A stretch of DNA of 43,096 bases from Escherichia phage SonjaBuckley_Bas74, in sequence record PQ850627.1. One strand, given 5' to 3'. The position numbers and the translations under genes are program-made. How positions within the stretch are numbered: the first letter of the stretch is position 1; each line of letters starts with the position of its first letter. This document shows positions 4,418-36,989 of this stretch, piece by piece. Below the pieces are notes generated by a model, which did no database searches, was not told the origin of the DNA, and saw only the letters and a list, made by a program, of their open reading frames with translations.

Positions 4418-4878
4418 TGATGGGCTTTTTCAAAGTAACTGACGTACCGTCTCGTCGCGTAGTCCAGTACGCCCGCGTGTCTGGCTCTGGCGAGAACGTG
4501 GTATTTATTGAGGACGAAAGTGTACTCGGTACACCGGTAGATGATATGCCGTTTGCAGATAAAACCGGTATTGCGTTGCCCGCCGCCGGTATGCTTTATG
4601 AAATTCCGTATCTGGCGGACGCTGGCGACGTGTATTTCTCTGCGCAACCGCAGGACGCTGAACTGGCGGGCGGCAGCGCAACCATCACTGTCGAGGTTAA
4701 GGCAGGCAAAGCGCCGTATTCTCTGACCTGGTACAAAGACGGTAAGGAAGTGGTGAATGCGCCTGAGGAGGCTCTGTCTCTGACGGTTAATGCGGTCGGC
4801 GAATACTTCGTTAAAGTTACTGATGCCGATGGAGTAGAGGCGGTAAGCAAAGCGGCGAAGGTTACTAAGCCAGAATGA
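4417..4878 (+). CDS. Ig-like domain protein (putative head decoration/accessory)
   Basis: C-terminal segment TITVEV...APYSLTWYKDGKEV...GEYFVKVTD resembles an Ig-like beta-sandwich; start overlaps preceding stop (TAATG); paralogous to 7879-8223. Confidence 0.45.
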   Translation: MMGFFKVTDVPSRRVVQYARVSGSGENVVFIEDESVLGTPVDDMPFADKTGIALPAAGMLYEIPYLADAGDVYFSAQPQDAELAGGSATITVEVKAGKAPYSLTWYKDGKEVVNAPEEALSLTVNAVGEYFVKVTDADGVEAVSKAAKVTKPE

Positions 4879-4881
4879 TAA

Positions 4882-4908
4882 AAGGCCCCATTATGGGGCC
4901 TTAGTTTT
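4882..4908. terminator. bidirectional intrinsic terminator
   Basis: GGCCCCA-TTA-TGGGGCC hairpin with A-run upstream and T-run downstream, between convergent genes. Confidence 0.65.
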
Positions 4909-5111
4909 CAACGGAATCTTGTGTTTAAATCCTGCTCATGGACAACCCTCAGAACAGTGTCATAATCCCCGTATCTTCCAGGTTCAAATATATCTAATGC
5001 CTTGTAAGCAGACATTGCGTCAGGGAAAACCTGCAGAACCTTTTTAACCCGGCACAAGTCACCGTCGAACTCTTCATCGAACTCTTGAACTACTTCGCAA
5101 ATTGCATACAT
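4908..5111 (-). CDS. hypothetical protein (antisense moron, 67 aa)
   Basis: ATG with strong SD AGGAGGTG 5 nt upstream; own promoter TTGCAC-N17-TACTAT at 5139-5167; terminator hairpin at its 3' end. Confidence 0.55.
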   Translation of the reverse strand: MYAICEVVQEFDEEFDGDLCRVKKVLQVFPDAMSAYKALDIFEPGRYGDYDTVLRVVHEQDLNTRFR

Positions 5112-5138
5112 TTTTCACCTCCTGTTTAAGTTAACTGA

Positions 5139-5167
5139 ATAGTACCCTATTATATTGGGGTGTGCAA
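5139..5167 (-). promoter_or_regulatory. sigma70-type promoter TTGCAC-N17-TACTAT for moron 4908-5111
   Basis: Minus-strand reading TTGCACACCCCAATATAATAGGGTACTAT; 31-bp core identical to copy at 13662-13692. Confidence 0.55.
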
Positions 5168-5218
5168 ACTATTTATTTACGTATTCCAGTTATTCCTCGA
5201 ATTGTAAATGTTGGAATA

Positions 5219-5234
5219 AACTATTCGAATAGTT
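5219..5234. promoter_or_regulatory. perfect 16-bp palindrome AACTATTCGAATAGTT (operator candidate) abutting TTGACT
   Basis: Exact inverted repeat; half-site ACTATTC recurs in several promoters of this genome; overlaps a TTGACT -35-like hexamer at 5233-5238. Confidence 0.45.
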
Positions 5235-5441
5235 GACTTTTCACTAAAAATATGATAAGCTCCACCTGAGCTTGTGAAGTATGAACAAGCGACCGCGGCG
5301 CGGGCAGGTAACGGAGCGGGACGTAAGTCCTGAGTGCAGTTACGCTGACGCGTTCGGAAGGGCCATACTCTATTGCTTGTGTAAAAAGTAACTGGTTTAC
5401 TGAGATTACGCCGTTTCTATGTTTAAATGATAAGGACTAGC

Positions 5442-5468
5442 GCCCCGCTTTATGGCGGGGCTTTACTT
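5442..5468 (+). terminator. terminator-like hairpin upstream of spanin genes
   Basis: GCCCCGC-TTTATG-GCGGGGC followed by TTTACTT. Confidence 0.5.
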
Positions 5469-5485
5469 ATCGAGAAAGGGGAAAC

Positions 5486-5872
5486 ATGAATCTTAAAGCA
5501 ACTGTCGTAGCAGGAGCATGTTTCATCATCCTGGTTTACGCACACGGCATCTACCAGTATCGCAGCGGATGGAACGAAGGCCGGGCTAATCTCGTTTCGC
5601 AGCAACAGCAGAAAGCACAGGCTGAGTTAGCGAAGAAAACACAACGGCAGCAGCAGGATGAATCGAAGGCCGCCGCCGCTGACAACGAAGGCAAGACGAA
5701 ATCAGAGGTGATTACCCGTGAAGTCGTTAAGTACATTAAAACGCCTGGTCGCAGCGTGTGCACTTTTGACCCTGAGCGCGTGCAGCTCAAGTCCCGCGCC
5801 GTCGCCAACGCCAATTCCATCCCCGGATACGACGATGATGCAGCCGCCGTGCAAACTGGCGCAGCCAAGTAG
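5486..5872 (+). CDS. i-spanin (Rz-like)
   Basis: N-terminal TMD ATVVAGACFIILVYAHGIY followed by Q/K/E-rich coiled-coil region; contains an overlapping +1 frame lipoprotein ORF. Confidence 0.65.
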   Translation: MNLKATVVAGACFIILVYAHGIYQYRSGWNEGRANLVSQQQQKAQAELAKKTQRQQQDESKAAAADNEGKTKSEVITREVVKYIKTPGRSVCTFDPERVQLKSRAVANANSIPGYDDDAAAVQTGAAK

Positions 5873-5981
5873 CGACGCTGATGAGGATTTGGCCGTCGAC
5901 GTTCAGAATGCTGAATGCGTACGGCAACTGAGACTGAAAGTGTTCATGTTGCAGGATTACGTGAGGAATATTCTGGAATAG
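5718..5981 (+). CDS. o-spanin (Rz1-like outer membrane lipoprotein)
   Basis: +1 frame relative to the i-spanin, overlapping its 3' half; signal peptide with lipobox LSAC; proline-rich mature part SSSPAPSPTPIPSP. Confidence 0.65.
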   Translation: MKSLSTLKRLVAACALLTLSACSSSPAPSPTPIPSPDTTMMQPPCKLAQPSSDADEDLAVDVQNAECVRQLRLKVFMLQDYVRNILE

Positions 5982-6036
5982 TTGCCTTGCATGTTGGAAT
6001 AATTTATTCTTGACATGTAAATCCGGGTGGCCCGGA
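5965..6036 (+). promoter_or_regulatory. phased GGAATA repeats, TTGACA hexamer and TCCGGG-N3-CCCGGA palindrome upstream of scaffold gene (candidate late promoter / activator site)
   Basis: GGAATA at 5965, 5975 and 5996; 12-mer ATGTTGGAATAA shared with 5208-5219; TTGACA at 6010-6015 without a recognisable -10. Confidence 0.35.
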
Positions 6037-6063
6037 TTCCAACGTCCAGGGGACATACTGACT

Positions 6064-6765
6064 ATGAATCGTTTTTTACGTTATCCGTTCCAGGAAGAAG
6101 CTGGAGCAGAAGATAAAGCTGGTGGCGGTGACGCTCCTAAAATGTTCACCGCTGAAGAAGTTCAGGCGCTGATTGAGAAAGAAGTTGCCGGGCTTAAGGC
6201 TAATCAGGAAGCATTGTTGGCGGAGAAGAAAGAAGCCGCTCGCAAAGCAAAAGAGGCCGAAGAAGAACGGCAGCGCGCGCACCAGGAGGCGTTAAAAGCC
6301 GCTGGTAAGATGGATGAGTTCGAAAAGACGATTCGTAGCCAGTACGACCCTGTGTTAGCCGAGAAAGACGGTCGCATCTCCAGAATGGCAGAGCGTATCC
6401 TCGGCAGCGAACGTAAAGCGGTGCTAGGCTCTTTCGCGGGTGACTTTATTACCCCAGAAGCAGTGGACATTCTTGCGCCGTTCGTTAAGACTGAGTTCGA
6501 AGGCGATGATGTGGTTACTAAGTTTGTTGGTGCAGACGGTAACGTAATCACGACTGACCCGGAACAGTTCCGCAAATACCTGCGCGAACACAAGGCGTTT
6601 TCGCATTTGATCAAAGCAAATGCAGCTTCCGGCGGCGGGGCTTCCGGTAGCAAAGGCGGCGGGGCCGCACCAGCGTTTAAAGACATGAGTGAAGCAGAGC
6701 GTTTAGCCCTGTATAAATCGAACCCTGCCGAATTTGAACGGCAACTTAAAGCCCTGAGGAAATAA
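6064..6765 (+). CDS. scaffold protein (putative)
   Basis: ATG at 6064 with AGGGGA SD (ORF track extends to 6010 without SD); K/E/A-rich coiled-coil-like sequence; directly upstream of major capsid gene. Confidence 0.55.
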   Translation: MNRFLRYPFQEEAGAEDKAGGGDAPKMFTAEEVQALIEKEVAGLKANQEALLAEKKEAARKAKEAEEERQRAHQEALKAAGKMDEFEKTIRSQYDPVLAEKDGRISRMAERILGSERKAVLGSFAGDFITPEAVDILAPFVKTEFEGDDVVTKFVGADGNVITTDPEQFRKYLREHKAFSHLIKANAASGGGASGSKGGGAAPAFKDMSEAERLALYKSNPAEFERQLKALRK

Positions 6766-12019: not shown

Positions 12020-12045
12020 AAGGCCCCGAAAGGGGCCTTTTTTAT
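12020..12045. terminator. bidirectional intrinsic terminator
   Basis: AAGGCCCC-GAAA-GGGGCCTT followed by TTTTTT; between convergent major tail gene and moron operon. Confidence 0.7.
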
Positions 12046-13633: not shown

Positions 13634-13663
13634 TTTAAACCCCTTCATTGTTGGTGTAAGCGA

Positions 13664-23883: not shown

Positions 23884-23908
23884 AAGGCCCCGTTTGGGGC
23901 CTTTTCTC
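23884..23908. terminator. bidirectional terminator at structural / replication block junction
   Basis: AAGGCCCC-GTTT-GGGGCCTT followed by TTCTCT; convergent transcription units meet here. Confidence 0.65.
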
Positions 23909-36418: not shown

Positions 36419-36448
36419 TTGAAAGTTCTTGACACATGTTTGTATAAT
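36419..36448 (+). promoter_or_regulatory. promoter TTGAAA-N18-TATAAT driving a non-coding transcript
   Basis: Consensus -10 TATAAT at 36443-36448; divergent from the minus promoter at 36353-36381. Confidence 0.45.
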
Positions 36449-36455
36449 GGTTTTG

Positions 36456-36675
36456 GGACTTGTATATATTACGGAGTTGACGAACCCTCCCCGAGGGATT
36501 CGTCAACCCCTCCCAGACAGCTGAGATGCTTGCCTTGTGGTTTAAGGATAAGTGTATCTAAATCTCATTTAAAGAAGTAACCCGCTGAAATATCTACTGT
36601 TTCTTAATGTGCCGTAGATTCGCAACCGTAAAAATGTAACGATTATTGGGCAGGCTTAGGGCCTGCCCTTTAGTT
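36456..36675 (+). ncRNA. candidate small non-coding RNA (about 220 nt)
   Basis: Promoter upstream, strong 5' hairpin at 36476-36507, intrinsic terminator at 36648-36675, no ORF with SD (only an 11-codon ATG frame). Confidence 0.3.
36648..36675 (+). terminator. intrinsic terminator closing the candidate sRNA
   Basis: GGGCAGGC-TTAGG-GCCTGCCC followed by TTTAGTT. Confidence 0.6.
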
Positions 36676-36740
36676 ACCAAGTAATAAGAATAAAGGCACA
36701 ACAGTTTCGAAAGAATCACAACGGCAACGTAACTATTCTC

Positions 36741-36803: not shown

Positions 36804-36989
36804 ATGTTTAAGAAGGGTCAGTTGGTTCGTAATAGATTGAGCGGCGATTTATTTACAGTAATAGAATCAAATCTAATGTGGTTTGGTTTTGTGGAGGTTA
36901 ATAGCGTAGCGGGTTTCGGTAAAGGGTTACTCCGTAAATGTGATTTAGAACTCATCGGCAACAATTTTAAATTCAAAGGGGCGAAGTGA
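36804..36989 (+). CDS. hypothetical protein (61 aa)
   Basis: ATG with AGGAGTGAAGG SD (ORF track GTG at 36795); first gene downstream of TTGCAC-N17-TACTAT promoter. Confidence 0.45.
   Translation: MFKKGQLVRNRLSGDLFTVIESNLMWFGFVEVNSVAGFGKGLLRKCDLELIGNNFKFKGAK

Follow-up and report, generated by a model that had tools for sequence, protein, structure and literature searches.

A conserved structured RNA directly upstream of the i-spanin gene in phages of the Guernseyvirinae

We studied the island at positions 5112-5485 in the genome of Escherichia phage SonjaBuckley_Bas74 (sequence record PQ850627.1; the whole stretch of 43,096 nucleotides is called the window below), a Kagunavirus of the subfamily Guernseyvirinae. 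The island lies between a divergent accessory gene of 67 codons (4908-5111, minus strand; ribosome-binding site AGGAGG at 5118-5123) and the i-spanin gene (5486-5872, plus strand). The open reading frame (ORF) of the latter is overlapped by that of the o-spanin (5718-5981, plus strand), which carries a lipobox, and both are annotated as spanins in relatives. The scaffold and major capsid genes come after the spanins; the holin and endolysin genes are distant, at about 40 kb. A preliminary description had treated the island as non-coding DNA containing a repressible-looking promoter, a palindrome and a terminator. It does lack a gene, but the stretch 5262-5440 is not spacer: it encodes a covarying structured RNA, which is the island's main content. 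We hold, with high confidence at the least, that 5233-5471 is a single unit composed of a promoter, a structured RNA and a compound 3' hairpin. RNAs of the same family immediately precede the i-spanin gene in all the Guernseyvirinae examined.

The promoter of the unit (5233-5261, plus strand) has the sequence of a sigma-70 promoter of the extended -10 class, i.e., a -35 hexamer, a spacer of 16-18 bp and a TG one base before a -10 hexamer that has A2 and T6. It reads TTGACT, 17 bp, TGaTAAGCT: the -35 hexamer (5233-5238) matches the consensus at five of six positions, TG is at 5253-5254, and TAAGCT (5256-5261) matches at three of six (T1, A2 and T6). A simple promoter scan did not call it. Transcription would start at about 5268. 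The geometry -35/17 bp/TGn-TAnnCT is retained across four diverged versions of the unit, namely type A (this window, Kagunavirus and some Salmonella phages), type B of Jerseyvirus (TAGACT-17-TGtTACGCT), type C of more distant contigs (TGGACT-17-TGaTAACCT) and a second copy found in some relatives, here called copy 2 (TTGACT-17-TGcTAAGCT). In the 24 nt from the end of the hairpin (upper stem 5442-5461) to the spanin ATG (5486) no promoter fits, so spanin transcripts from the 5233 promoter must cross the hairpin; the earlier claim that spanin expression from this promoter needs read-through is thus sustained. The control of lysis timing by antitermination that was proposed with it may exist.

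The conserved RNA core (5268-5366, plus strand) consists of a short hairpin, P1 (5270-5275 pairing with 5285-5290), a 65-nt rod (5293-5357) of about 25 bp broken by conserved internal loops, and an AAGGGCC tail. The rod is built of P2 (5293-5302 with 5349-5357), P3 (5305-5312 with 5339-5347, G5344 being bulged), a 2-bp step (5316-5317 with 5336-5337) and the apical P4 (5318-5322 with 5327-5331), closed by a GUAA loop. A covariance model, R1, made by writing this structure on an alignment of 12 type-A variants, found the core at 5268-5366 with 123.6 bits (E 2e-29) as its only match in the window, and detected the type-B RNAs at E values of 1e-5 to 1e-8. In an alignment of 27 distinct sequences fitted to the model, 98.3% of 772 cells were paired and 16 of 30 pairs were altered on both sides; none of 500 shuffles reached these values, and controls with the pairing partner slid by 1-3 columns gave 29-44% paired cells and one to three double-changed pairs. 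A single rod pair was seen as C-G, U-A and A-U. Two positions held G-U pairs in 24 of 26 rows; since these would be C-A mismatches on the opposite strand, the folded strand is the plus transcript. The folding z-score was -2.3 for the plus strand vs -1.4 for the minus strand. Unpaired motifs, AAGGGCC and UCUAUUG, were strongly conserved as well. Two further observations had too little statistical power: a possible antiterminator pairing of AGCGGG (5315-5320) with CCCGCU of the 3' hairpin, and a possible alternative pairing offered by the duplicated word GCUUGUG.

This core is a conserved plus-strand RNA secondary structure that belongs to no described RNA family. A search of the whole window against Rfam 15 at gathering thresholds gave no match, and a search of 4850-6100 at E <=10 returned only noise (<=20 bits, far under the family thresholds). 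BLAST against 5,426 complete E. coli genomes found no homologue of the RNA. Scanning a genome collection with a pattern of the core gave 65 matches, all in non-enterobacterial and mostly GC-rich genomes (Streptomyces, Actinomycetota and others); in a metagenome scan, only four contigs, of about 44 kb, were phage-like in size among the matches listed. No bacterial or prophage home for the RNA emerged from these pattern scans. The literature on small RNAs, RNA-seq and promoters of Kagunavirus, Jerseyvirus and Guernseyvirinae yielded no account of this RNA.

Inside the RNA there is a 36-codon ATG frame (5281-5391, plus strand), which several GenBank records, including those of Bas70 and Schulenburg, annotate as a hypothetical protein. 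The preliminary description had found no convincing Shine-Dalgarno sequence for it, and we found none either. Of 43 distinct type-A sequences, 29 had the full frame of 36 codons; in the other 14 its length differed or the ATG was missing, and indels of 1 nt shifted it in L009, L019 and L025 (handles of the form L009 designate relatives compared here). Types B and C have no equivalent start codon. Variation fell on first and second codon positions, and the variable sites pair, with compensatory changes, in the RNA stems; the shared peptide "AFGRA" is simply the translation of the conserved CGGAAGGGCC motif. A small protein encoded at 5281-5391 was rejected on the grounds of the frameshifts in relatives and of the lack of a start common to the types. 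The frame is not a gene and the unit has no protein-coding capacity.

The 3' part of the RNA (5367-5428, plus strand), as read directly from the sequence, has the motif CUCUAUUG, a putative small hairpin AGUAA-CUGGU-UUACU (5387-5401) and, at 5376-5382, the word GCUUGUG once more, as on the 5' strand of P1. It is followed by the compound, terminator-like hairpin (5429-5471), which ends 14 nt before the i-spanin start codon. Its lower stem pairs GAUAAG (5429-5434) with CUUAUC (5466-5471), and its upper stem, GCCCCGCT/TTAT/GGCGGGGC followed by TTTACTTATC, joins 5442-5449 to 5454-5461 through eight pairs, seven of them G-C. A simple terminator scan flags the hairpin, with the tail UUUACUUAUC. The terminator-like hairpin pointed out earlier before the i-spanin is real, and it is conserved: four of 10 predicted pairs of the upper stem were changed on both sides in an unbiased MAFFT alignment, and the lower stem covaries across the types (GAUAAG/CUUAUC, UAUACG/CGUAUA and GUAAUGG/CUGUUAC). 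The U-tract of type A is moderate and those of types B and C are poor; the hairpin may be only a weak terminator. An assignment as an Hfq-dependent small RNA was discarded, there being no long free 3' U-tail: only three consecutive U are present, and the tail is able to pair with GAUAAG at 5429-5434. The pairing of the U-rich tail with A-rich sequence on the 5' side is an arrangement familiar from ProQ-type ligands, which would suit a stand-alone small RNA. In all types the stable hairpin adjoins the Shine-Dalgarno sequence, and there is no obvious conserved competitor structure.

The region 4880-6070 was 99.8% identical to Escherichia phage vB-Eco-KMB35 and matched 329 phage records, mainly of Kagunavirus and of Salmonella Jersey-like phages, also Guernseyvirinae. 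The type-A island occurred in 181 phage records, with an identity of >=90% in nearly all; among them were Salmonella phages whose spanin and scaffold region had no more than about 81% identity with the window. The island core of three such genomes was 95-96% identical, vs 74-81% for the i-spanin gene, 82% for the scaffold gene, 83% for the capsid gene and 72-80% for the head morphogenesis gene. When the three were compared in 50-nt blocks, positions -250 to -1 relative to the spanin ATG were 92-100% identical; in two of them (L033 and L042) the 100 nt after it were only 66-74% identical. The hyper-conserved block stops exactly at the Shine-Dalgarno sequence AAAGGGG and the i-spanin ATG (5475-5488), and the conserved module is exactly the stretch from the promoter through the spanin ribosome-binding site. 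The only plasmid match, E. coli 'plasmid' CP088689.1 (44,086 bp), has the island at two places, at 97.9% identity, and is probably a misfiled Kagunavirus genome.

Types A, B and C have in common the promoter geometry, two hairpins (one short, the other long and irregular), the motif CGGAAGGG(C/U)C and the compound 3' hairpin by the spanin ribosome-binding site. Type C was missed by the models R1 and R2 even with filters off, and its homology, judged by eye, is suggested by shared motifs (CGGAAGGGUCGAG), promoter geometry and position. Three further pre-spanin RNAs, called types D/E, matched the model weakly (E 0.02-0.2): L045 (1491-1572), L056 (1461-1544) and L049 (1597-1672). They have the architecture of the island RNA, with a hairpin and a rod capped by GGCC-GUAA-GGCC; L045 has the motif AUAGUCUAUU, and its 3' module is also that of type C. 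All of these RNAs, the weakly matching D/E included, lie between a promoter and the i-spanin ribosome-binding site.

Upstream of the promoter, the perfect 16-bp palindrome AACTATTCGAATAGTT is present at 5219-5234, as had been described, and is fused to the -35 hexamer TTGACT (5233-5238) by an overlap of 2 bp. It is the sole perfect 16-bp palindrome in the window. As a statistical rarity it was rejected, for 54% of shuffles of the window contain one (mean 0.74 per shuffle); the evidence for it is conservation and not perfection. Its presence in close relatives had been named beforehand as a check, and it was exact in 33 of 38 distinct type-A sequences carrying that stretch; neither copy 2 nor types B and C have it. 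Its centre (5226.5) is at -41.5 from the predicted start, i.e., an inverted repeat at the Class II position, kept in type A only. The palindrome is part of an array of TATTC/GAATA pentamers at 5182-5231 (TATTCC 5182-5187, TTATTCC 5190-5196, GGAATAA 5213-5219, TATTC 5222-5226 and GAATA 5227-5231). The array has a family-wide order, seen in each of the types A to C: TTATTCC twice as a direct repeat, a spacer, GGAATA-N3-TATTC and then the -35; type A adds GAATAG and so forms the perfect palindrome. The array is missing upstream of copy 2. We presume that 5182-5231 is the binding site of a putative phage regulator. The earlier label 'repressible' was a guess: the palindrome is specific to type A, and the family-wide array could equally bind an activator; occupancy could repress or activate, and sequence cannot tell which.

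The two densest pentamer clusters in the window are 5182-5231 and 5966-6009, the latter before the scaffold gene, and one putative DNA-binding protein probably acts at both. A scan of viral contigs with TATTCCARTTATTCC, an AT-rich and unspecific pattern, gave unrelated contigs among the matches listed. At the scaffold gene, Kagunaviruses were 99-100% identical in the intergenic stretch 5982-6063 and distant relatives 83-93%, a conservation above that of some flanking coding sequence. This stretch contains a candidate promoter, TTGCCT (5982-5987), 17 bp, TATTCT (6005-6010), and, where the scaffold message is predicted to begin, a hairpin (6021-6039) with a covarying stem (AATCCGGG, ACACCGGG, AGCCGGG and GACGGGC).

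The accessory gene has on the minus strand, at about 5137-5167, a repeated promoter-like motif, TTGCACACCCCAATATAATAGGGTACTATTC, which agrees with the minus-strand promoter noted earlier; the same motif occurs at 13662(-), 36765(+) and 38204(+). The preliminary description had also stated that the palindrome half-site ACTATTC recurs in the promoters of the genome. The recurrence was borne out, with 11 occurrences against 4.4 expected (one of 100 shuffles reached 11), most of them belonging to TTGCACACCCCAATATAATAGGGTACTATTC, which precedes the accessory gene and several others. The placement was not the same: ACTATTC is mostly downstream, 3', of a TATAAT box, and in the island promoter it is upstream of the -35 within the palindrome. 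A repeat of consensus tgAATAGTa-ccTATTat-T was reported in the Kagunavirus fBC-Eco01 and assigned in that genome paper to a phage RNA polymerase (PMC9825357). This consensus is the reverse complement of the TATAATAGGGTACTATTCA motif sited at 5137-5167 before the accessory gene; like it, the palindrome contains ACTATTC, but sites of the fBC-Eco01 type have ACTATTC 3' of TATAAT and the island promoter has the ACTATTC palindrome 5' of its -35. No RNA polymerase is annotated in the close relative Bas70. Note that a motif (TTGCACACCCC)AATATAATAGGGTACTATTC was seen before several genes, at 5137-5167(-), 13662(-), 30822, 33122, 33166, 36765 and 38204; its TTGCAC is merely 7 bp from TATAAT, so the two are not a standard -35/-10 pair.

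To the left of the accessory gene, the portal, head morphogenesis and Hoc-like decoration protein genes form a plus-strand operon whose last gene ends at 4878. A strong hairpin, AAGGCCCCATTATGGGGCCTT, follows at 4883-4902 with T-rich tails on either strand and is likely a bidirectional terminator for this operon and for the accessory gene; nearly identical hairpins were seen at 12020-12039 and 23884-23903. The position of the accessory gene (4908-5111) is a variable slot, many relatives matching the window only from about 5109 on. Phage Schulenburg has a sliding-clamp-like gene in this slot and an HNH endonuclease farther upstream.

The type-A core was found at 223 places in 180 phage records, so that about 43 records, i.e., about a quarter, carry two copies. 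In several Kagunavirus contigs the second model match is about 10.7 kb upstream. Copy 2 was located in L228 (12249-12349, minus strand), L196 (11817-11917, minus strand), L242 (6743-6841), L235 (11337-11435) and L215 (1610-1709). It has the promoter core of the spanin-linked copy, TTGACTTTT.ACT..AAAAT.TGCTAAGCT; its RNA core is also the same, apart from additional compensatory changes. It has neither array nor palindrome. The 3' part is shared only as far as ...UCUAUUG, after which copy 2 has its own compound hairpin, GGGGTGGGC-TAAC-GCCCACCC. Its site is in the divergent early region, just upstream of a promoter with the repeated motif, and corresponds to about 36700 in the window, where the covariance model search found no copy 2. 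L010 has, before its spanins, a core identical to that of copy 2 in L215, an indication that the two loci have exchanged sequence.

At the copy-2 locus the window has instead a different non-coding promoter-to-terminator unit (36419-36680), composed of a promoter TTGAAA-18-TATAAT, a perfect hairpin GTTGACGAACCCTC...GAGGGATTCGTCAAC and a terminator (36648-36668) with the tail TTTAGTTACC; the fold of 226 nt had a z-score of -4.5. The 3' half of this unit is conserved in 334 phage records and the 5' half is variable. The spanin-linked D/E RNAs (L045, L049 and L056) use the promoter type of the 36419-36680 unit. That D/E RNAs are under a promoter of the second-locus type argues that the two loci exchange RNA cassettes.

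The layout of the island recalls the late gate of lambda-type phages, in which the promoter pR' makes a '6S' transcript of about 194 nt that ends at tR' unless the Q antiterminator acts, and which in Shiga-toxin phages yields StxS (PMC7547250). Like pR'-6S-tR', the island has by its sequence a strong, constitutive-looking promoter, a predicted transcript of about 200 nt (5268 to about 5468), a hairpin and then lysis and late genes, with the spanin ATG at 5486; there is a protein-binding-like DNA element at the promoter, and the short RNA may itself be functional. Unlike the lambda gate, no Q-family protein is present in the Bas70 annotation, the transcript is a covarying structure conserved across the subfamily, only the spanins follow, with holin and endolysin at about 40 kb, and the phage is virulent. 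A second comparison is with putL and putR of phage HK022, cis-acting antiterminator RNAs that need no protein factor and act via the zinc-binding domain of the RNA polymerase beta' subunit (PMC9378689). Like the put sites, the island RNA lies just 3' of a sigma-70 promoter and 5' of terminators and has two adjacent irregular stem-loops, and in some genomes two paralogous copies head two operons; it differs in that its core is 99 nt with a 65-nt rod (put is about 70 nt) and in that copy 2 is followed by another promoter. With lambda nut (boxA and boxB, used with N protein), a leader RNA element that the transcription complex reads, the island shares a linear motif, CUCUAUUG, followed by a small hairpin (5387-5401), a likeness seen by eye only; unlike nut, CUCUAUUG is a poor boxA match and no N-like protein was identified.

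In the explanation that we favour, host RNA polymerase would start near 5268 and make the folded RNA. Some transcripts would end at the hairpin and its U-rich tail (about 5462-5471) as a stable RNA of about 200 nt, and the remaining ones would run into the spanins with the RNA as an obligatory 5' leader of the spanin message. The core, acting in cis on its own transcription complex or message, would set the share of transcripts that passes the hairpin and later terminators, so that this RNA element would take the role of nut or put RNAs in a layout like lambda pR'-6S RNA-tR'. The TTATTCC/GAATAG array and the palindrome by the -35 would be the site at which a phage DNA-binding protein times the promoter. 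Taken whole, RNA unit and deduced mechanism together, this explanation seems to us evenly poised between right and wrong. To its central step, that the core is a cis-acting leader controlling passage through the hairpin and later terminators, we lean tentatively, with doubt slightly outweighing belief. A leader acting in cis is indicated by the tie of the RNA to the spanin ribosome-binding site in every type, by the further plus-strand terminators along the late operon (7833, 12020 and 14352) and by the copies heading two plus-strand operons in some relatives, which recall HK022 putL/putR (PMC9378689); the closing of the upstream operon by the strong 4883-4902 hairpin also counts for it. The stable hairpin, having no evident competing fold, points to control at the polymerase rather than to a riboswitch-type refolding. 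Several points weigh against this explanation. The covariation alignment was fitted to the model and so biases the counts toward the proposed structure. Where the transcript starts and ends, and how efficiently it is terminated, is deduced from the sequence, and the U-tracts are poor in types B and C (tails UUAGCGUAUA and UGUUACGAGG, respectively). Recombination of the module is not tied to the spanin coding sequence. The candidate TTGCCT-17-TATTCT at 5982-6010 precedes the scaffold gene, so the capsid genes may not depend on the unit. No antiterminator protein is found in the Bas70 annotation, in which about half of the small genes are 'hypothetical' and no profile search was made. A similarity to HK022 put was rejected: R2, run unfiltered on the whole HK022 genome, gave one match, at E 1.1 (36892-36931), which is not a put site. 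Finally, a hairpin belonging to copy 2 and, after it, a separate promoter lie between copy 2 and the next gene, so the genes downstream of it need no read-through.

This last observation fits better a stand-alone gene for an abundant trans-acting small RNA of about 200 nt, which would affect a host or phage target, e.g., by base-pairing, by titration of a protein or as an anti-defence decoy, with leakage of the terminator feeding the spanins at a low level; such a situation was shown for StxS, the short pR' transcript of Shiga-toxin phages (PMC7547250). A free RNA gene would account for the roughly 43 of 180 carrier records with a second copy of the same promoter and core, situated in the early divergent region with another 3' part and a hairpin of its own, for module edges set at the promoter and the ribosome-binding site irrespective of the spanin sequence, and for the interchange noted above, namely the L010 and L215 cores, the different structured promoter-to-terminator unit at the copy-2 locus of the window, and the D/E RNAs at the spanin locus under the promoter of that other unit. 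The strong conservation of the unpaired AAGGGCC and UCUAUUG and the possible separate scaffold-gene promoter also agree with it. Yet in every type the RNA stays about 15-25 nt from the i-spanin ribosome-binding site, which a free gene would not require; the hairpins of types B and C are without a usable U-tract, so that a discrete small RNA would need processing; the short U-tail is unlike that of an Hfq-dependent small RNA, and no target was identified. We consider a stand-alone RNA possible but rather unlikely. Still less probable to us, and quite improbable, is an element of processing or stability, with the irregular rod serving as an RNase III-type site like those of T7 messages, or with leader and hairpin protecting the spanin or late message from decay or tuning spanin translation; either way there would be no action on the polymerase. 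The rod of about 25 bp, the stable hairpin set against the Shine-Dalgarno sequence in all types and the similar covarying hairpin (6021-6039) at the predicted 5' end of the scaffold message are compatible with such an element, but the near-100% conservation of loops and linkers exceeds what a stabiliser would need, and copy 2 has no adjacent coding sequence to stabilise. That the island would work at the DNA level only (operator, promoter and terminator), with a 36-residue protein or inert spacer between, we regard as very improbable. Some records annotate the ORF, which 29 of 43 distinct sequences keep intact, and the palindrome is conserved within type A; against this, there are frameshifting indels, no Shine-Dalgarno sequence and no common start in types B and C, the variation at codon positions 1 and 2 is compensatory in RNA stems, and a spacer would not be 92-100% identical beside coding sequence of 66-74%.

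To our knowledge, little is known of the timing of late and lysis genes in the Guernseyvirinae (Kagunavirus and Jerseyvirus), phages isolated widely with therapy and biocontrol in view and represented in the BASEL collection (Bas70-76). We propose, as a doubtful conjecture, that the core represents a new phage RNA family that binds the host transcription machinery or another conserved host factor, either as a put-like antiterminator or as a host-directed regulatory or anti-defence RNA. If put-like, it would be a processive antiterminator independent of protein and unrelated in sequence to put, opening late and lysis operons across a subfamily of virulent siphophages; if read-through is under its control, the RNA would be a rare case of RNA-based transcription control in a virulent coliphage; should it work in trans, it would be a new phage small RNA directed at a host target. 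Whichever reading holds, several GenBank records annotate a spurious ORF inside the RNA, and what was "hypothetical protein plus spacer" becomes an RNA element with nucleotide-level boundaries, a structure supported by covariation, natural variants and a paralogous copy.

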